From the IMG/VR virus record IMGVR_UViG_3300025809_001850: a stretch of 64,000 nt of DNA; one strand, 5' to 3'. The DNA is from a virus (taxonomy: Duplodnaviria > Caudoviricetes). Below the pieces are notes generated by a model, which did not search any database, was not told where the DNA came from, and saw only the letters and a list, made by a program, of their open reading frames with translations. Made by a program: the position numbers and the translations under genes. Shown here piece by piece: positions 8,248 through 63,540 of the stretch. Every line of letters starts with the position of its first letter. Within the stretch, counting starts at the first letter, position 1.

Positions 8248-10887
8248 ATGAAAAATATAAGTGATATTACCGGGTATGATTACAATGATAAAGATGGATT
8301 TTTCCCCATATCGAATTCAACAGCTACACCAAACAACCGAACGATTCTTAAAAATGCAAGTGATCGTAAAATCAGTAATGCTATGAATCCTTCACTTAAG
8401 CATCGTTGGGATGCCAAGAAAAAAAGACAGGTTAGAGAAATTTCAGACAAAATTAGTGCAGAAGACATTAAAAAGCAAAAACTCAAGAACGAGTTTGAGT
8501 CTGCCAACTCTGCTATTTCACATAAGCAACTTGAAAAGAAACTCAAAAAGGAATCCAAGAAGAAATCCAAGCATCTTAGAAATATGATGCTGGAACCTTT
8601 CAAGGCAAAAGTTGCGGAAATCGCAAATACTATTGAAAGTCGTAGAATCGCAATGATGTATATAATAAAGGGTGCAACTAACCAAGGCAAAACTTACACA
8701 TCAGCAAAGTTCGCAGTTCCTTATTTAATGAAGAAGCAAGGTGTAGATGTTGTTTTTTATACTTACCCTCAAAATGAAATCTTCAATAAGAACGAGTGGA
8801 GAACCAAAGGTTACAAGATTATTGCTATTGGTGAAAATGATCAAAGAATTTCAAGTCAGATTGATTCACTTTTAGATGACATTGAAAATGATGTTGATCC
8901 TGTCAAATATGTAATCGCAATGACCAACAAAACTCTTGCGTGTGCTAAAAGTAGCACTAATCGTGAATCGCATGGAAAATACCTTGCCAAAAAACTTCAT
9001 TCACTTGGTAAGAAAATGGCATTCATTCTGGATGAATGTCACACATGGACGATCAGCCACATAGATGCTTACACTGATGTCACGGGTAACACGGGTGTAC
9101 CTCCTCAGTATGATGCTTCATTGTTTAAGTTTGTTGCTTGGTTGTCTAAGTACACTAAATTTCTGTTCGGACTTACCGCAACTCCTAACTTTGAGCAAAC
9201 TGGATTACGAGATACAATTAAAAAAGAAGCAAAACTTGATTACTCAGTAATCAACGAGTTTCCTGAACGTGAGGATTTGCTTCACGGACAAGCATGGTCA
9301 AAGAAGTTTGATTTCATGGACATGAAAAATGAAAATGACATTCAGACTAAAATTAGAAATATCACACGGGAGCATCTATCGGACAATATGACTTTGTCAG
9401 CTGCTGGACTTAAGGGAACAATGTTTATTCAGTCTAACACAGAGAAATCCACGAATAATAAAGCATTTGATGTGATGGACAGAATGAAGACTGTTGTCAA
9501 GGATTTACTCATTACTGACGATACCATTGATGATATTTATGATTATCTTAATCCTGAGACTGCTTCATTTGCGATTATATCTTCACATGATGACTGGCAA
9601 GGAGTATATTCCCTTGGGTCAGCATCCCGTCCGTACGACAGATTGGGTGGTTATCTCACCGAAACAGAAATCTACAAAAGGTTGGGTAATCCCAACGACC
9701 CACTTACTTTTTTAATTGCAGTTCAAAAAGGAAAAATGGGATTAAGTGTACACTCGTTCAGAAGTCTTATTTCCTTCAAAAATACCGAAAAGAAAGGCAA
9801 AGACGATGATAACAATTCTATCATAGTAACAACTATGCACGTTCAAACACTTGGACGTATGCCAAGATTGTATGTCCGACCGGACAACAAGAACTATGTA
9901 AAAGAATTCGGATATTCCACATTTGAGTATATAGCAAGAGCAAATGAATCAGAACTTAGTATATTGAAACTCAGTAATTCATATAATGTCCTCGTTGCCG
10001 ACTCGCAGACTTGGAGAGAATCTGTTGCCTGCTTCAACAAGCACTATGGTACTTCTCTTGAAATGGCAGAAAAGGAAATCGATAAAGTTCGTGCTGAATA
10101 CCCAAAGGCAAATCAAATTCCGGTCAATCATAACCTCCCAATAAACGGTGGTATTGTTTCAAACAAAAACGGATTTATTCTTGAAGCAAAGGTATGTCAG
10201 GCACTTATTTTTCAGGTGGAAGAACTCAATGAAAAACTTGGATTAACGGGTAACGATATATACAGAGTTCATTATTTCAAGTACAAGAAACTTCTTCCTT
10301 TGATTGATTCTAAGTATCACTATCTGATTGCGTCCTACCCAACCGATAAAACACCCGGTGGTCACAGAAAAATTCTTTCCAATAAAAATGAAGGTGGTGA
10401 GTATTCTATTGATTTAGATGCTTATATTGCTACACAGAATGATCCATTTGATATAGCAATCGGGTTCACAATTAAGAATGCAACCAAAGATCAAAACGGA
10501 GACGGACTATTAAATGGACTGACAGCAATGGAAGTTGATCTTGGGTTCCCTGGAATCGCAATAGTAAATCTTTATAGTGTAGATGAAAAAAAAACCCAAA
10601 AAAAGTCAAATACCTTTGCAAACAAGAAATCATCAAACACCTACGATAAATTTAAGTTTAATCAACACAAGTATAAGAACTCATTGGAAAGTGAAAACTT
10701 CAAGATCTTTGGTTTGAATGATCGGTCCGACTACGAGAAAATCAATTCAGATTTTCGTGACATGATCGGATATTACTATGATGAAGGAAGTGCTGAAATT
10801 GACCGACTTGTTACGAACCACCACACGGAACTCAAAGAAATACCCACCAAAATACCACGAAGAGGTGTGGATTTAATCTTCAGTTAG
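8248..10887 (+). CDS. SF2 (ResIII/DExH-like) helicase with putative C-terminal restriction-endonuclease-fold domain
   Basis: GATNQGKT (motif I), ILDECH (II), GLTATP (III), QTLGRMPR (VI); C-terminal SNKNGFILEAKV...PFDIAIGFTIK resembles PD-(D/E)xK; track start 8179 lies inside the promoter, so start moved to 8248. Confidence 0.75.
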   Translation: MKNISDITGYDYNDKDGFFPISNSTATPNNRTILKNASDRKISNAMNPSLKHRWDAKKKRQVREISDKISAEDIKKQKLKNEFESANSAISHKQLEKKLKKESKKKSKHLRNMMLEPFKAKVAEIANTIESRRIAMMYIIKGATNQGKTYTSAKFAVPYLMKKQGVDVVFYTYPQNEIFNKNEWRTKGYKIIAIGENDQRISSQIDSLLDDIENDVDPVKYVIAMTNKTLACAKSSTNRESHGKYLAKKLHSLGKKMAFILDECHTWTISHIDAYTDVTGNTGVPPQYDASLFKFVAWLSKYTKFLFGLTATPNFEQTGLRDTIKKEAKLDYSVINEFPEREDLLHGQAWSKKFDFMDMKNENDIQTKIRNITREHLSDNMTLSAAGLKGTMFIQSNTEKSTNNKAFDVMDRMKTVVKDLLITDDTIDDIYDYLNPETASFAIISSHDDWQGVYSLGSASRPYDRLGGYLTETEIYKRLGNPNDPLTFLIAVQKGKMGLSVHSFRSLISFKNTEKKGKDDDNNSIIVTTMHVQTLGRMPRLYVRPDNKNYVKEFGYSTFEYIARANESELSILKLSNSYNVLVADSQTWRESVACFNKHYGTSLEMAEKEIDKVRAEYPKANQIPVNHNLPINGGIVSNKNGFILEAKVCQALIFQVEELNEKLGLTGNDIYRVHYFKYKKLLPLIDSKYHYLIASYPTDKTPGGHRKILSNKNEGGEYSIDLDAYIATQNDPFDIAIGFTIKNATKDQNGDGLLNGLTAMEVDLGFPGIAIVNLYSVDEKKTQKKSNTFANKKSSNTYDKFKFNQHKYKNSLESENFKIFGLNDRSDYEKINSDFRDMIGYYYDEGSAEIDRLVTNHHTELKEIPTKIPRRGVDLIFS

Positions 10888-11777
10888 TGCTTGATATCAA
10901 TCAATCCATTTTCATTGTAAACAACAAACGGCATTGCATTGGTAGTATGAGCAACACCATAATTACCTTTAGAATCAATTCCAATGTACCCATAAAAATG
11001 TTTTCGTTGTTTTGCTTCTACAAAAGTTTTGTTGAATGCTTCTTTCAAAGACATTCCATCACGAATTCTCGTTTCTGTTTTTGAAGCAACTGCATCGTTG
11101 GTAATTTGTTCTCCGATACCTGTGACGGTAACAGCTGCAAACTTACTTGCATAATTTCCTGCGATTGTCCCAGAATCCGAAACTCTTCCTGGCATTTCAT
11201 TTCCGATACCACCGGTTGATGATCCACTTGCTAATTGTCCTTTGCTATCAATGACCACACAACCAACTGTATCATGTTCTGCCGTAGATGGGTAGTTTTG
11301 TTTGTGAAGATTACTTAACCACCTTTTAGATTTATCCTCGGTCAAATTAGAAGCAACGGGTAACTTCATTTCTCTTGCAAGTAATTCAGCACCTGGTGAA
11401 GCAAGAACCTTGGCATTTCTATTTTGAAGTTTTTCCGCAAGTTTACTTGGATTGCTGATGTAAGGAACAGATACAACTCCACTGAAGTTTTGTTTGTGTC
11501 CATTCATTATACTTGAAGTTAATCGTGGAACACCATCAGATTGTAATGCACTTCCGATACCTGCGTTGAATTGTTCATCATTTTCAAGCATTTCAAGACA
11601 TTGAACTACAACCTTAATTGCCGATTTGCCAGACTTTAAATTGGACATACATATATCCGCCATATTTTCTATTGATGCAATTGCTGATTTTAAAGCATTT
11701 CCTTTTGGATCAATCGGACTTGCTCCTCCGTGAATAATGATTAAAGGTAATTGTTCTTTTCCGTAAAATTGATTCAC
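10884..11777 (-). CDS. iaaA: isoaspartyl peptidase / L-asparaginase (Ntn hydrolase)
   Basis: IIHGGA, FNAGIGS, catalytic HDTVGCVVID, STGG, PGRVSDS, TGIGE. Confidence 0.9.
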   Translation of the reverse strand: MNQFYGKEQLPLIIIHGGASPIDPKGNALKSAIASIENMADICMSNLKSGKSAIKVVVQCLEMLENDEQFNAGIGSALQSDGVPRLTSSIMNGHKQNFSGVVSVPYISNPSKLAEKLQNRNAKVLASPGAELLAREMKLPVASNLTEDKSKRWLSNLHKQNYPSTAEHDTVGCVVIDSKGQLASGSSTGGIGNEMPGRVSDSGTIAGNYASKFAAVTVTGIGEQITNDAVASKTETRIRDGMSLKEAFNKTFVEAKQRKHFYGYIGIDSKGNYGVAHTTNAMPFVVYNENGLIDIKH

Positions 11778-11861
11778 ATAATATAAGTATTTAATTATAT
11801 TTATATAAACGCAAACTGAGTATTCTAAACAAAATTAGGACATACAATCGAGAAACAATAA

Positions 11862-14788: not shown

Positions 14789-15496
14789 TTAATCCAACCA
14801 ACGAATTGTAAACAACGTTGATTTGGTATTCGTGTAATTAGTATGTGGTAAATTTGGATACCAATAAACAAAATCTCCTTGAGTATTCATTTCGCATCGT
14901 TTATCTTGAAACTGAATTTTAAACTCCCCGTCAGTTAATACGCACATACTTTTCCAATCTTCGTTTATTATTTCATCATTCAATTTTGGTTGACGAATAT
15001 AAGGAACTTCGTGACGAATTGACCATTTGAATTCAAGATTGTCAGAATAAAATTGTGGATGTTTGTTTTGATCAACAAACGGTCCTATAACCCAATTTTT
15101 ATACAGATTCGTGTAATTAGAAACGTTTCCGTATCGTTTACCTTCGTAGTTACTTTTCCAACGCAAAACAATTGCGACACAATCTATGTTGATGTGAAAC
15201 TTAGGATGACGAACAGAATCGTGAACTGCATAATCACCATAATTAGAAAGCAAAATACTTTCTGATTCGTATTTAACAAACATTTCTCCTTTGATTAAAA
15301 ATACTGCTTCGCACCAATCGTAATCTCTTCCAATTTCTGTTTGATTACGAATTTCACCTGCTTTCCAATTACACCATCTAAAATAAACACTATCGGTGTG
15401 TGTTCTGCACATATTATTTTTAAATGGAGCAAGAACCCATCCGTCTTTATCGGCGATAGATGACACATTATTATTTTGAATATCACTATATTTCAT
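14789..15496 (-). CDS. tandem double-cupin protein
   Basis: Two homologous halves (GWVLAPF..FRW..AVFLIKGEMFV..GDYAVH and NWVIGPF..FKW..CVLTDGEFKI..GDFVYWYPNLPH); AGGAG RBS upstream. Confidence 0.65.
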   Translation of the reverse strand: MKYSDIQNNNVSSIADKDGWVLAPFKNNMCRTHTDSVYFRWCNWKAGEIRNQTEIGRDYDWCEAVFLIKGEMFVKYESESILLSNYGDYAVHDSVRHPKFHINIDCVAIVLRWKSNYEGKRYGNVSNYTNLYKNWVIGPFVDQNKHPQFYSDNLEFKWSIRHEVPYIRQPKLNDEIINEDWKSMCVLTDGEFKIQFQDKRCEMNTQGDFVYWYPNLPHTNYTNTKSTLFTIRWLD

Positions 15497-15582
15497 AGAA
15501 TCTCCTATATTATCATTTGTTGTAACGTAAAGTCAATTCAGAATAAGTATTAAACAAAACTGACTAACGAATATTTATATTT

Positions 15583-33889: not shown

Positions 33890-34465
33890 ATGACAAAGAA
33901 AAAACGTGAATTAGAAATCGGTGACAATGTTAAAGAAATTGTAACCACTCGTGGCAGAAAAAAAAGAATCGGAGAAATTGTTTCTATTCTTAGTGATAAT
34001 GTGGGTGATCCTACAATTGAATGCATTGAAGTTGATCCAAAAGAATTGACTCCCATTGAAGGCACATCTGGTCAACACAAAACATTTAAAGCAAAACGAA
34101 GCAAACTTAAACATTACATTCCCCGTAAAAGTCTTTTTAAGAAAGAAACATTTGAAATAGGAAAATGTGTTGCTTGTAAAAGTGGTTCCCGAATGAGATA
34201 CGGAAGAATCATGGGATATCTGAATCAAGAAGAAGGATTATATCCTCATTCATACGATGCAGGTGAGTATAATGGACATGATTTGCTGGAATGTGTTCAG
34301 ATTGATCCTAAACCAGGATTGCATAGAATCATTGAAGCAGATGGAACTCCAAAAAAGTTCGTAGGATATCCTGACAAGTGTAAACTTGTAAAGGTAATTG
34401 ATGTTGATAATCAAGGAAATCCAACTACTAAACTTAGATTAGATATTCCAACACAAGAAGATTGA
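33890..34465 (+). CDS. hypothetical protein with two SH3-like repeats
   Basis: LEIGDNV..GEIV..IECIEVDPK and FEIGKCV..GRIM..LECVQIDPK. Confidence 0.6.
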   Translation: MTKKKRELEIGDNVKEIVTTRGRKKRIGEIVSILSDNVGDPTIECIEVDPKELTPIEGTSGQHKTFKAKRSKLKHYIPRKSLFKKETFEIGKCVACKSGSRMRYGRIMGYLNQEEGLYPHSYDAGEYNGHDLLECVQIDPKPGLHRIIEADGTPKKFVGYPDKCKLVKVIDVDNQGNPTTKLRLDIPTQED

Positions 34466-34522
34466 GTTTTTATAGCAATTATTTGTTTGAATTATTAACC
34501 AAACAAATATATATTTATTGTT

Positions 34523-35893
34523 ATGGAAAATTTAAAATCTATTGTTGAACGAATTGATAAGTCTGAAAAAATGAAAATCATCAAGGTGATGAGAAAAAAG
34601 TCTTTTCTTAATTATCGTGATGATCTTGAAAAACTTGGTATGAAAGTCGACTTTGCAACGAGTCCGTTTGCTTACTATAAAATCACATCACGTAAGTGGG
34701 GAAGTGATAGCATTTACATCACAAGCAAACAGAATGTAGGTGATGATGCGGAATACATCAGCAACGATAACATCGCAATGGGTGAATTAACTGAAATTGT
34801 ACAAGAAACAATGTTTAGTAAAATGAAAGCAAAAGAAGAACTTAAAGAAATCGTAAGAGAAGTTGTTTCAGAAATTATGACGGAAAATCACAAATTCAAA
34901 GTCGGTGACGAAGTAAAATTTAATGGTAATTATGATGGTGTGGTTGTCAAGGTTCATACTGATGGTAAACTCAAAGGAATGATTGATGTACAAAAGAAAG
35001 GTCGTTCATCAACCGTGACACTATCTGCTAGTAACAAAAAAGAAGTTAGACCAATCAAAGAAGATTTATTTCACTGCATTCAAGATTTAATGAAGTCTGG
35101 AGATGCCCGTAATGTTGCTGATAAAAAATGCAAACGTTGGGGAGTAAGTGAATCAGACGAAGAACTTACCGAAGATGATGGTACTAACATCAATGTCCAT
35201 GCGTTGAATTCAAGTGAAATTCAACTTGCAGTTGGTGCAATCAATTTCTTTGGCACAGGATCACATCCAATGGCAGATGCCAAGGGACTCAAGTATTTCA
35301 AGGTTGAGTATCTTGCCGACATCATTGCAAAAAATAAAAGCAAGTTATCAGGAGACGCAAAAAAGCATTTGGCAAATTTGTTAAAGAAACTTCAAAAATC
35401 AATCAAAGAAGATTCGGTAACTGAAAACAAAGACATTAACTTTGTTTTAGACCAACTTGCAAATGCAGTTGATTTGTATCCAAGAGATGAATTTGCTCAA
35501 CATATGGCAAAAAATACCAAGTACAATGAAAAAGATTTTGAAAAGTTGTATGATGCGTATTTCAAAATGAAAGCAATGGATCGTTTTCATATGGCAATTG
35601 ATATTGGAAAATCCAAAAAGTTTCTTTCTAAGTTTGGAATCAAAGAAGAAGTTGAATCTATAAACGAAAATATGAGTGACTTGGAATTTGTGGTTGACCA
35701 ACTTGCAAACTCAATGGAACATTATGACGAAAAAGAGTTTGTTAAACATATGTCAAAAGAAACCAAATACAATGCCAATTCATTAAAGAAGGTATTCAAC
35801 GCATATTGGGATTTGGGTGCAAGAGAACGAGATGATACATTTACAAGAGTTAATACTGCAAAACCTTGGTTGAAGAAATTTGGAATCAAGTAA
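34523..35893 (+). CDS. modular (polyprotein-like) putative internal virion protein
   Basis: Domains separated by I/L/V-x-E sites; internal KAKEELKEIVREVVSEIMTE; two tandem about 75-aa DQLAN..KFGIK repeats; ATATTTAT upstream. Confidence 0.6.
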   Translation: MENLKSIVERIDKSEKMKIIKVMRKKSFLNYRDDLEKLGMKVDFATSPFAYYKITSRKWGSDSIYITSKQNVGDDAEYISNDNIAMGELTEIVQETMFSKMKAKEELKEIVREVVSEIMTENHKFKVGDEVKFNGNYDGVVVKVHTDGKLKGMIDVQKKGRSSTVTLSASNKKEVRPIKEDLFHCIQDLMKSGDARNVADKKCKRWGVSESDEELTEDDGTNINVHALNSSEIQLAVGAINFFGTGSHPMADAKGLKYFKVEYLADIIAKNKSKLSGDAKKHLANLLKKLQKSIKEDSVTENKDINFVLDQLANAVDLYPRDEFAQHMAKNTKYNEKDFEKLYDAYFKMKAMDRFHMAIDIGKSKKFLSKFGIKEEVESINENMSDLEFVVDQLANSMEHYDEKEFVKHMSKETKYNANSLKKVFNAYWDLGARERDDTFTRVNTAKPWLKKFGIK

Positions 35894-35894
35894 A

Positions 35895-36257
35895 ATGAAA
35901 ATTACCAAATCAAAATTAAAAGAAATGATTCAAGAAGAACTTGAATCACTCAAAGAAGGAATGAACAAACGAGAAGGAGCAGAAGTTATTGCTCAACTCG
36001 GTGGTGGTCGTTTCATCGCAATGACAGGAGCAAAAGACTTTTTCATTGGACCAAAAGGTGTTGTATTTAAAATTGGAAGAAATTCAAAAAATGTAAATTA
36101 TGTTCGTATCAATTTGAATAGTATGGACACTTATGACATTGAGTTTCTTCAAGTCAGAAAATTTAAAGAGAAAGTAAAAAGTCAAGCAAAGGGAGTTTAT
36201 GCAGATACACTTCGTGGTGCATTTGAACAACACACAGGATTAAGAACATCATTATGA
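35895..36257 (+). CDS. EEL-leader protein with conserved phage domain (QLGGxRFxAMTGA..FEQHTGL)
   Basis: Leader MKITKSKLKEMIQEELESLKE; start moved to 35895. Confidence 0.75.
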   Translation: MKITKSKLKEMIQEELESLKEGMNKREGAEVIAQLGGGRFIAMTGAKDFFIGPKGVVFKIGRNSKNVNYVRINLNSMDTYDIEFLQVRKFKEKVKSQAKGVYADTLRGAFEQHTGLRTSL

Positions 36258-36547
36258 AAATATCAAAAGAACATCTTAAACAAATCATTCGCGAAGAACT
36301 CAATGAAATGCGTCCTCATACTTCCAAAGATTTACCAACACAAACTATTATTGACACCATCAAAAAAAATCTTGATTGGGAAGATGAGTATCTTGGTTCA
36401 AAAGGAATGAAACAACTTGAAAAAGATTTAAAAAAGAAAAAAAGAATGTCCGCTAATGATTTAAGCAAACTTCTTCCTGGATATATTCCAAGTGATGAAA
36501 TTTTCGGAATATTCAAAAACCATCTTGCGATAGGACCAACAGAATGA
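36254..36547 (+). CDS. EEL-leader hypothetical protein
   Basis: MKISKEHLKQIIREELNE; ATGA coupling. Confidence 0.7.
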   Translation: MKISKEHLKQIIREELNEMRPHTSKDLPTQTIIDTIKKNLDWEDEYLGSKGMKQLEKDLKKKKRMSANDLSKLLPGYIPSDEIFGIFKNHLAIGPTE

Positions 36548-36891
36548 AAATAACAAAAGAAAAACTCAAACAAATAGTTCGTGAAGAACTTCAAGATTTA
36601 AAAGAAACCTCAGAACAAGAAGTAGGTGAAAACAACGCATTGGATAATGCTATTGCTAATCGTGATGATAATCGTGCAAATCGTGATTCACAAGAAAGAT
36701 ATGAAGATTTGTATTTGGGATTACAAAAACTTATCAGTAAAGTATCCAAGAACAATAAGGTAAAAGGATACGGAGGTGAATTAACTCACGCATTTGTTGA
36801 TTTGCTTTATGCAGTAGAAACTGATCGTCTTGGAGTTGGTGAAATTTTTAATGGACTTAAAAAGATTAATAGTAAGATTTCCAAAAAGTGA
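36544..36891 (+). CDS. EEL-leader hypothetical protein
   Basis: MKITKEKLKQIVREELQDLKE. Confidence 0.7.
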   Translation: MKITKEKLKQIVREELQDLKETSEQEVGENNALDNAIANRDDNRANRDSQERYEDLYLGLQKLISKVSKNNKVKGYGGELTHAFVDLLYAVETDRLGVGEIFNGLKKINSKISKK

Positions 36892-37364
36892 AAATAACTA
36901 AGCAAAAACTCAAAGATATTATTCGTGAAGAACTTGAAACATTGACCGAAGAACACCACGGTGATGTTTCGTTTTCTCGTAGAAAACTTAAATTAGCATC
37001 TGAAGATGCCGAGTGCGTATTACAATGTTTGGCAGATAAAGCAGAAGACGAAGAACTTCCTAATTGGTGGATTGATAAAGTAAGTAAAGCAGCCGATTAT
37101 CTTAATGTATGTCGTGATTATATCAAAACCGATGATTTAAACGGAATACACGAAGATACAGAAAAAGAATATCCGATTTGGGGAATTCCACCGGGAAAAA
37201 ACTCCGAAGAACTTTTATACACAAAAGCAACAAGTAAACGACAAGCATCAAAAATTGCAAAGATTTTAACCGACAAACATAAATGTAAAAAGGTTAGAAT
37301 ACAAACATTAGACTTAGCACAAAATCCATCTGATATTTGGGATTCAGAAAAACTATTCAAATAA
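36888..37364 (+). CDS. EEL-leader hypothetical protein, two modules
   Basis: MKITKQKLKDIIREELETLTE; LPNWWIDKVSKAADYL motif; internal IHE|D. Confidence 0.7.
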   Translation: MKITKQKLKDIIREELETLTEEHHGDVSFSRRKLKLASEDAECVLQCLADKAEDEELPNWWIDKVSKAADYLNVCRDYIKTDDLNGIHEDTEKEYPIWGIPPGKNSEELLYTKATSKRQASKIAKILTDKHKCKKVRIQTLDLAQNPSDIWDSEKLFK

Positions 37365-38472: not shown

Positions 38473-38550
38473 TTCTATGTTGTCGCAAACTGACAATAAA
38501 AAACTTGCAAAATTGTCATAATAATATATATTTAAGTTATTGGATATATT

Positions 38551-59657: not shown

Positions 59658-60251
59658 ATGAAATTAACTGAATTAAAATCTGTTATCAAAGAAGAAATTA
59701 AATCTCTTCTTACGAATGTTAAAGTATCTAAACATCTTGAGTATCATCTTGAGAACCACTCTACTTTGGTTGAGGGGGTTTTCCGTTACGGATCAGACTC
59801 GTACCTTGATTTGTTCGTAGAAGCAAGAACTCTGTATTCACAGGGTAAAATTCAGTTGAGTGAGATTGATCAACATTTGATTGAAAATACTGATATTGGA
59901 TCATGGGGTGAATACAACGAAATGCGTGTTCCACTTGATTGTCCATTTCAAATTCACGAATCTGAATATCAAGGCAAAGATGTGGAACTCAATAAACCAA
60001 AACGAGGTGGAGACAAAAAGTTTTATGTGTATGTTAAAGACCCAAAAACTAAAAATATTCGTAAGGTATCATTCGGTGATACCACAGGATTAAGTGTTAA
60101 GTTTAAAGACCCGGTAAGAAGAAAAGCATTTGCTGATCGTCATAATTGTTCTACCAAGAAAGATAGAACCAAAGCAGGATATTGGTCGTGCAATTTACCA
60201 CGTTATGCAAAGCAACTTGGTATGGGAGATAATCAAAATACCTATTGGTAA
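59658..60251 (+). CDS. EEL-leader protein with conserved EYQGKDVELNKP..FADRHNC..YWSC domain
   Basis: Leader MKLTELKSVIKEEIKSLL; C-terminal basic domain recalled from large phages. Confidence 0.75.
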   Translation: MKLTELKSVIKEEIKSLLTNVKVSKHLEYHLENHSTLVEGVFRYGSDSYLDLFVEARTLYSQGKIQLSEIDQHLIENTDIGSWGEYNEMRVPLDCPFQIHESEYQGKDVELNKPKRGGDKKFYVYVKDPKTKNIRKVSFGDTTGLSVKFKDPVRRKAFADRHNCSTKKDRTKAGYWSCNLPRYAKQLGMGDNQNTYW

Positions 60252-62221: not shown

Positions 62222-62336
62222 TGTGGCATGAAGCATTTTTCTATATCAGCATTGCGTTTACTTTGTTGATATTTTTGATGGCATTCATTTACTATTTAGA
62301 TGATGAATCGTAATTTTTTTTAAAACATATATATTT

Positions 62337-62792
62337 ATGAATATGGATATCAACGAACAATTTGAAAAACTAGTAGCATCTGATCTTACAGAAGGATCAA
62401 AGTGGTTAAAGTATAGTGATTTGCTTTTGGCAAAAATCCACGCAATAGAAAAAAATGGTGCAAAGTCGGCAGAAGTTAAAAAACTTGATAAAGAAATCAA
62501 AAAAGAAATGGATAAACTTGGCATCACCGAGGCAGTATCAAGAACCGGATCATCTGGAACAATAGACCTTGATGAATTAGAAAGAAAACCTCGTGTTAGT
62601 ATAAAATATTGGGAAAAACTTTTTAAAGGAAAAGCAGAAGAAGTATTTGATGGAATTCATGGATACATTGTATTGATCAGAGTATCTTCTGTTGTTACTC
62701 GCCATCAATCAAGTACATTTGAATATTTAACAAAAGGTCCTGATTACCGTTGGATTGAGTTTGATGACAAGTATATCAAGATAGGATTCTAA
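62337..62792 (+). CDS. hypothetical protein with I/L-x-E sites (putative processed cargo)
   Basis: DINE|Q, DLTE|G, GITE|A; ATATTTAT upstream; start may be 62343. Confidence 0.6.
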   Translation: MNMDINEQFEKLVASDLTEGSKWLKYSDLLLAKIHAIEKNGAKSAEVKKLDKEIKKEMDKLGITEAVSRTGSSGTIDLDELERKPRVSIKYWEKLFKGKAEEVFDGIHGYIVLIRVSSVVTRHQSSTFEYLTKGPDYRWIEFDDKYIKIGF

Positions 62793-63121
62793 TGAACAAA
62801 TCAGATTTAAAACAAGTTATTCGTGAGGAACTCAAATCGTTACTTGAAGGACAATACGAACTTTATCACAAGTCATTTACATCAGCAGCTGAAACTGCAC
62901 GTAAAGTTGCCGAGAAAAAAGGATTTGAAATTGACGAAGAAAATTGGACAACCGAAGTTGCATTCGGTGGAAAATACAGACGAGCAAGACCAAGTGTAGG
63001 TAAAAGTAATTCGTTTAGTGTTGCTTTAATTAAAAACGGAAAACCACAACGCAAACATCTTCACTTTCAAGTATACGGAATGGAAAGTGGTAGTTTTGAA
63101 TTAAACGCATACGTTTCGTAA
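62792..63121 (+). CDS. EEL-leader hypothetical protein
   Basis: MNKSDLKQVIREELKSLLE|G. Confidence 0.7.
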   Translation: MNKSDLKQVIREELKSLLEGQYELYHKSFTSAAETARKVAEKKGFEIDEENWTTEVAFGGKYRRARPSVGKSNSFSVALIKNGKPQRKHLHFQVYGMESGSFELNAYVS

Positions 63122-63479: not shown

Positions 63480-63540
63480 ATAAACTAAATGAATCAGAAA
63501 TGAATTGATAACTTGGTTATATTCATATATATTTATTGAT

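Follow-up and report, generated by a model that had tools for sequence, protein, structure and literature searches.

We have analysed a 64,000-nucleotide stretch of DNA from a tailed virus (IMG/VR record IMGVR_UViG_3300025809_001850; Duplodnaviria, Caudoviricetes), which is in its full length referred to as the window, with respect to a family of short N-terminal leaders that are attached to otherwise different proteins. Between positions 33890 and 37364, the + strand of the window carries densely packed genes, the last four of which (35895, 36254, 36544 and 36888, named by their first base) overlap by four bases each (ATGA or GTGA) and are translationally coupled. A first-pass annotation, made from the letters of the DNA, had read the motif MKI(T/S)K-x-x-LK-x-(I/M)(I/V)-x-EEL at the start of all four proteins and had described the bodies behind it as unrelated. 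Both observations hold. The bodies share no relationship with each other and show differing or no matches to PHROG and Pfam families, while the leaders are all significant with a hidden Markov model (HMM) that was trained on leaders from IMG/VR alone, with the window left out, and run on a six-frame translation of the latter (Table 1). As the values obtained with this outside model range from E = 4e-10 to 1e-7, chance is excluded. Among the codons that specify the same residue in the four leaders, 48 of 73 are identical compared to 37.7 expected from codon usage, and the differences at synonymous positions thus point to selection on the peptide instead of a recent repeat of the DNA. The annotation had further stated that each leader ends in L-x-E, which applies to three of the four (LKE, LKE and LTE) but not to 36254, where the corresponding residues are EMRP.

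The surrounding sequence has a GC content of 34% and carries nearly all of its genes on one strand. It encodes a DNA ligase, a helicase, an AAA ATPase, DUF285/LRR proteins and a protein of 425 residues that is common to T4-like cyanophages, features that fit an uncultured marine T4-like phage. A megablast search of the locus against phage records gave no match. Nine marine metagenome runs, possibly including that of the source sample, contain the locus of the array in full (98-100% of sampled words), and an identical copy of the 36544 protein is found in 90 blocks of a metagenome assembly collection. The cluster is also covered by contigs of metatranscriptome libraries, a type of data that cannot prove transcription or timing. 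In contigs of two such libraries (X17 and X18), codon 5 of the 36254 leader is joined to codon 9 of the 36888 leader (36268 to 36912) with two genes being skipped, which suggests array variants that originate from exchange inside leaders, a weak indication given the mere 24 nt on one side of the junction.

Table 1. Leader genes, leader variants and upstream elements in the window, with E-values of the outside-trained HMM in the six-frame search.
Feature	Position	Strand	Start	Leader	E-value	Description
Leader gene 1	35895..36257	+	MKITKSKLKEMIQEELESLKE	residues 1-21 (35895-35957), end LKE before G	8e-8	120 aa
Leader gene 1, body						~94-aa 'QLGG..RFIAMTGAK..TGLRTSL' domain; phrog_9437
Leader gene 2	36254..36547	+	MKISKEHLKQIIREELNEMRP	MKISKEHLKQIIREEL	4e-10	97 aa; body without known family
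Leader gene 3	36544..36891	+	MKITKEKLKQIVREELQDLKE	end LKE before T	1e-8	115 aa; body without known family
Leader gene 4	36888..37364	+	(V/M)KITKQKLKDIIREELETLTE	end LTE before E	1e-7	158 aa; GTG start
Multi-module protein	34523..35893	+				456 aa; upstream in the same packed cluster
Leader variant	62792..63121	+	MNKSDLKQVIREEL	MNKSDLKQVIREELKSLLE before G	1.5e-5 (significant)	unrelated 109-aa protein
Marginal leader variant	59658..60251	+	MKLTELKSVIKEEI	MKLTELKSVIKEEIKSLL	0.04	197-aa protein
Element ATATATATTTAT	34507-34518	+				before gene 34523
Element ATATATATTTAT	38524-38535	+				before gene 38551
Element ATATATATTTAT	62327-62338	+				before gene 62337
Element ATATATATTTAT	63525-63536	+				before gene 63541

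The detailed features of the leader are defined by an alignment of 271 canonical sequences. Their consensus (M1 K2 I3 T4 K5 x Q7 L8 K9 Q10 I11 I12 K13 E14 E15 L16) is conserved to 90-100% at most positions and followed by a more variable end of the helix (x x [VL] L E E), before the composition changes from about residue 23 to acidic residues, Gly, Ser and Pro, as is typical of a linker. The triplet I12-x-E14 is present in 99% of these sequences. At the end of the leader, a motif [LIVM]-x-E terminating at positions 19-26 is found in 64% of 297 leader proteins, compared to 25.5 ± 2.6% (maximum 32%) in 200 composition-matched shuffles of residues 17-30 and to 15% in equal windows taken from the bodies. 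This organization is mirrored in structure predictions with AlphaFold2. In the model of 35895, calculated from an alignment of 46 rows with a mean confidence (pLDDT) of 90.7, a helix comprising residues 5-20 is followed by the non-helical segment LKEG (21-24) and by a folded body, for which a Foldseek search against the PDB did not reveal a match at E ≤ 0.001. The model of 36888, which in light of its pLDDT of 49 was used for secondary structure alone, contains a helix at residues 5-17 followed by a break at 18-26. In six sequences related to the latter protein, L19-x-E21 is invariant and further L-S-E or I-H-E motifs are located between a first body module, which is common to all, and the different modules that come after it.

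The relationship between leader and body is illustrated in the body of 35895, which phages of many kinds, including such outside the T4 group, commonly encode as a gene of its own, with matches starting at residue 28-31 of the query. Its 115 metagenomic homologues occur in four forms. The first is leaderless (such as P0101, P0113 and P0067, with the start MDKRQAGE), the second is preceded by the long leader described above and the third by a leader of 10 residues, MIKLK[DE]L[LI]xE (P0059, P0064, P0074, P0087 and P0091). In the fourth, the body follows other modules, which in P0022 and P0029 are arranged in the order leader, KOW-like module, second internal leader and body. Wherever such a body is extended at its N-terminus, the original start Met is retained, and this vestigial residue is preceded by [LIVM]-x-E in the context [LIVM]-x-E-x-M in 33 of 35 distinct cases (LKEG-M, LNER-M, VSES-M, ITEG-M). 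A junction of this kind combined with a retained Met is expected if a protease cuts after hydrophobic-x-Glu, since the product would then resemble the leaderless form. In this case, the Met behind the junction would also show how such cargo is recruited, namely by addition of a tag ahead of an existing gene. The 10-residue leader was in addition observed on unrelated proteins (L133:3549, 11209 and 11427; L030:274 and 741).

To what extent the leader is distributed over other proteins was investigated in IMG/VR, where a back-translated degenerate DNA pattern identified at least 120 stretches, all counts of this harvest being lower bounds. In these loci, the HMM detected at least 335 distinct leader matches, 315 of which begin exactly at the Met, in proteins with a median length of 110 residues. 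When compared by BLASTP (E < 1e-4), the bodies of at least 297 full-length leader proteins form 235 clusters including 215 singletons, and one large 'cluster' consists of a network of mosaic proteins assembled from short common modules. Many of the bodies are small, helical and modular. Among 60 long leader proteins, Pfam recognized single cases of a pentapeptide repeat, which is possibly a mimic of DNA, of an LRR, of a YkuD (L,D-transpeptidase) and of a GNAT (acetyltransferase) domain, whereas the leader itself has no counterpart among the Pfam or PHROG families, either in the genes of the window or in these 60 proteins. The proposal of a portable tag on diverse cargo is therefore borne out, both by the 235 body clusters and by the leaderless homologues of the 35895 body in many phages, and it is established that the leader constitutes a separate module conserved at the level of the protein on hundreds of unrelated bodies. 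The largest array that we have seen is located on a contig of 288,697 bp and 96% completeness (L170 in IMG/VR), where at least 17 consecutive genes start with M[KR][IL]TKRQLKRIIREE.. and where the helix mostly ends with two hydrophobic residues in front of x-E (LIRE before S, LLKE before S, LLTE before N). In some relatives, the motif is located at the N- as well as the C-terminus of one protein, with examples of 327 (L013) and 209 (L001) residues.

Outside this harvest, the leader is rare. The HMM gave no match in the whole records of T4, S-PM2, Syn9, P-SSM2, HTVC008M, P-TIM40, Mel-JY01, pT24 and the 485-kb LR745208, and a single weak internal match in the Flavobacterium phage immuto. The literature, when searched in full text for the motif strings, did not yield a paper. 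The DNA pattern was detected in only eight stretches of five marine metagenome-assembled genomes (MAGs) among 185,579 species genomes of bacteria and archaea. Two contigs, NHDW01000006.1 from a Methylococcaceae MAG (305,838 bp; L160, L163 and L165) and PBIO01000025.1 from a Halobacteriovorax MAG (101,404 bp; L162), contain several leader genes each. These are probably mis-binned contigs of large phages, since both MAGs, each scored as a whole, contain the gene of the T4-type prohead protease gp21 (Peptidase_S77, PF03420).

A second pronounced feature of the leader concerns its association with gp21 and other genes of the phage head. The protease is encoded on all four leader contigs with a completeness of ≥90%, on 19 of 25 long contigs, on each of the first five contigs and on 12 of 20 fragments. 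In leader-bearing fragments covering 11-31% of a genome, it is found in 10 of 16 cases, compared to the 3.2 that would result from unlinked genes (P = 2e-4). From gp21 to the closest leader gene, the median distance amounts to 9.4 kb (36 contigs). In six contigs a leader gene lies at ≤0.5 kb, at the position of the core genes 67 and 68 in T4. On a marine phage contig of ~146 kb (L053), the leader array is found just upstream of the TerL-portal block. Directly ahead of both lies a gene for a GTPase of the tubulin/FtsZ family (L053:1009-2145; PF00091, E = 6.5e-8). The motif at the end of the leader is also found in the head proteins of this clade. When aligned by eye, a conserved LLRE before A or Q in the major capsid protein is located opposite to FLTE before A in T4 gp23, and the gp21 of the clade starts with ..LL[RTQ]E, akin to LIE-9 of T4 gp21 (PMC9026906). 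The first residues of T4 gp23 also resemble the leader, a likeness that does not extend to the major capsid protein of the clade and that we therefore discarded.

Close to gp21, a conserved protein of ~135 residues begins with MNKSELKKILKPLIKECI, or with MPKKVTRSLLKEIVKECL in the contig G009. Apart from the leaders, no sequence in loci of the head module matches the leader HMM better than the N-terminus of this protein (E = 0.007-1). A PHROG search of the neighbours of gp21 in the head module returned no annotation. The co-folding of gp21 with its conserved neighbour and an adjacent leader protein (contig G014) resulted in a score of 0.00, which carries no weight either way. Two genes after gp21, we find a small basic protein (L009:2481-2723, L146:5032-5280) in an arrangement that is conserved across the leader-bearing clade; its positional counterpart in the phage Mel-JY01 (L020:4155-4382) carries the annotation ribosomal protein S21 (RpsU).

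The described features resemble those of the capsid-targeting sequence (CTS) of the internal proteins of phage T4, on which Mullaney and Black are said to have reported in 1996. One of these proteins, in its form IPI*, acts as an anti-restriction effector. The CTS is a short N-terminal peptide on IPI, IPII and IPIII, small proteins that are otherwise unrelated, it is cut by gp21 and it has already been proposed to serve as an evolutionary device for the loading of varied proteins (PMC3012670; PMC9026906; PMC9958956). Within the peptide, residues 4 and 7 are the main determinants of targeting, whereas processing hinges on residues 8 and 10 (I-x-E), and the T4 protein Alt is processed at both termini (PMC9026906). 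As read from ipII and ipIII, the sequence of the CTS is MKTYQEFIAE before A, and this start (MKTYQEFIAEA) is resembled by that of the T4 scaffold gp22 (MLKEQLIAEA). An exchange of the junction Glu for Asp abolishes processing in T4, while targeting persists. Similar to the CTS, the leader is a short conserved peptide at the N-terminus of otherwise unrelated proteins, which mostly terminates in the hydrophobic-x-Glu site of gp21 and whose genes are arranged in tandem among small accessory genes. Relatives with the leader encode an S77 prohead protease, as does T4, the motif at both ends of some of their proteins is reminiscent of Alt, and the shorter leader MIKLK[DE]L[LI]xE equals the CTS in its length of 10 residues and in its hydrophobic-x-E end. 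Both systems differ in the 16-22 residues of the canonical leader compared to the 10 of the CTS, which are matched by the MIKLKDLLxE form in relatives, in the number of their members, with arrays of up to 17 or more leader genes and with body families in the hundreds compared to three in T4, and in the presence of polyprotein-like forms with internal leaders.

In light of these features, we lean, if narrowly, towards a role of the leader that is equivalent to the T4 CTS, by which a protein would be targeted to the prohead and the leader removed by a gp21-type protease. In a lineage of uncultured T4-like phages from the sea, the leader would then serve as a portable propeptide at the N-terminus, and its amphipathic helix would mediate the co-assembly of the protein with the prohead's scaffolding core. 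The protease would cut after the hydrophobic-x-Glu junction, and possibly a second time behind the invariant I-I-K-E within the leader, and multi-module forms would be cut apart likewise. The leaderless body would remain in the head together with the DNA, to enter the next host. The attachment to the prohead core and the cleavage, packaging and ejection of the protein are steps that we infer, as is any function of the cargo. For the latter, the first-pass annotation had suggested a set of anti-defence proteins that may be injected into the host, whereby nearly all bodies lack a known family. The evidence for such a role comes from several independent lines and is circumstantial. The parallel to the T4 CTS and its removal by gp21, which had been drawn in the first-pass annotation, thus has circumstantial support from the hydrophobic-x-Glu junction, the restriction to phages with gp21, the linkage and adjacency to head genes and the predicted helix followed by a break.

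Several observations weigh against this assignment. The leader and the CTS lack sequence similarity (MKITKxQLKQIIKEEL compared to MKTYQEFIAE) and have only the terminal hydrophobic-x-E in common. Since the leader HMM finds nothing in T4, we consider the leader as analogue and not as homologue of the CTS. In 36% of the 297 leader proteins, as in gene 36254 of the array, the junction motif is absent from positions 19-26, and Glu-rich amphipathic helices often contain hydrophobic-x-E by chance, as seen in 25% of the shuffles. With a median pI of 5.1, the bodies are not basic, unlike the internal proteins of T4, which rules out the idea of basic internal proteins. The closest cultured relative tested, the Microcystis phage Mel-JY01, is without leader, and the N-terminus of the conserved ~135-residue neighbour of gp21 bears only a weak likeness to the leader (13% probability with hhalign). 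A distance of 69-142 kb separates the arrays from gp21 in the larger relatives G007, G009, G017, G018 and G027. The position of an array outside the head module is by itself no objection to packaging, because the ip genes of T4 are likewise located apart, with ipII and ipIII being surrounded by small genes and sharing their strand with regB, denV and e, whereas the head genes are on the opposite one. Finally, no late-promoter signal can be assigned, as the T4 late-promoter consensus TATAAATA is found neither on the + strand of the window nor in the head-module loci of relatives. Its absence from the latter loci implies that this element says nothing on timing. In the window, it is present on the - strand only (11798-11805 and 15572-15579), just upstream of the two genes of that strand, which encode an asparaginase (10884-11777) and a protein of the cupin-like type (14789-15496).

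Part of these observations would also be compatible with a helix for general docking or oligomerisation in the infected cell, which could bind to a common hub protein of the phage or the host or act as degron or adaptor signal unrelated to the capsid, and whose Glu-rich termination would merely reflect the end of a helix. We regard this explanation as rather unlikely, while giving it appreciable weight in view of the internal and C-terminal copies of the motif, the location of the array among genes for replication and metabolism (ligase, helicase, AAA ATPase), the failure to find a late promoter and the on average acidic bodies. It would, however, not explain why a body that is also known without leader is preceded by a hydrophobic-x-E-x-Met junction in 33 of its 35 contexts, why leader genes are linked and in part adjacent to gp21, TerL and portal, and why the same motif is found at the expected processing sites of the major capsid protein and gp21 of the clade. 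In another explanation, the leader proteins would be minor components of the scaffold or core that, similar to gp67 and gp68 of T4, enter the prohead by means of their helix and are subsequently degraded and expelled, so that a delivery as effectors would not take place. Such a role would agree with the leader genes in the place of genes 67 and 68 in six contigs, with the leader-like N-terminus of the conserved ~135-residue protein and with the small, helical and modular nature of many bodies. It is hard to square with 235 unrelated body clusters, which include pentapeptide-repeat, YkuD, GNAT and LRR proteins and the well-folded QLGG domain of 35895, and a scaffold function is unlikely for bodies that phages outside the T4 group widely encode on their own, so that we judge this explanation to be improbable. 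A-rich codons after the ATG are typical of efficient starts, and it appears highly improbable that the common 5' end, despite its A-rich beginning (AAA ATT ACA AAA) and the two leaders that harbour the end points of the weakly supported array variant, is kept at the level of the nucleic acid as enhancer of translation initiation or as homology patch for the swapping of cassettes, a reading that is largely refuted by the freely varying synonymous sites and opposed by the conservation over 16 residues with conservative replacements and by the existence of internal and C-terminal copies.

The proposed CTS-like role can be compared to that of processed proteins in other phages. In phiKZ, 201phi2-1 and SPN3US, a protease related to gp21 cleaves many proteins in the interior of the head at x-x-Glu motifs, and for paralogues of these giant phages with identical N-termini a role resembling that of the CTS was suggested by the authors (PMC5694885). 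The propeptides of the phiKZ type differ from the short leader with its hydrophobic-x-Glu motif in their length of mostly more than 100 residues and in their motif S/A/G-x-E, and they belong to paralogous families, whereas the leader is one short tag on unrelated bodies. That a short portable peptide suffices to load diverse cargo into a shell of the HK97 fold is illustrated by the cargo-loading peptides of encapsulins. In contrast to the leader, these are usually C-terminal, bind the shell directly, are not removed by a protease and are not viral.

Further copies of the leader had been noted in the window at 59658 and 62792 and, in internal positions, in 34523 and 63541. The copy at 62792 is confirmed, whereas the one at 59658, whose protein contains a phrog_7595 domain at residues 101-179, is marginal (Table 1). 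The two internal copies did not withstand the search with the HMM. In 34523, a leader-like helix at 34832 (MKAKEELKEIVREVV), which is followed by a KOW-like module, is not significant on its own (E = 0.5), and no match was obtained for gene 63541 in the six-frame translation. The same KOW-like module is placed between two leaders in the relatives P0022 and P0029. Upstream of genes 34523, 38551, 62337 and 63541 we find the element ATATATATTTAT, for which, allowing ≤1 mismatch, the window contains seven matches compared to 1.3 expected. The four sites listed in Table 1 are located up to ~15 nt before the ATG, with no Shine-Dalgarno sequence in between. The element precedes clusters of leader genes but also an operon of exported proteins. 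The element could thus be a promoter or an initiation element.

Collectively, our results allow a broader view of the biology of these phages, which we put forward as tentative. Abundant uncultured T4-like phages of the sea may equip their heads with unrelated proteins and polyproteins, hundreds in number, by means of one or two short portable tags that are removable by a protease (the long MKITK..IIKEEL leader and the MIKLKDLLxE form of 10 residues), which would amount to an ocean-wide set of injected effectors evolving by fusion of the tag in front of the start codons of existing genes. If true, the sequence of the tag alone would mark, in metagenomes, those proteins of a large group of abundant marine phages that travel in the capsid into the host, and hundreds of 'hypothetical' genes would become candidate first-strike effectors of one defined class. 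The principle of the T4 CTS would in this case be general and would have evolved again with a different sequence, and the leader would provide a natural short tag for the loading of cargo into the capsids of T4-like phages beyond those of coli.

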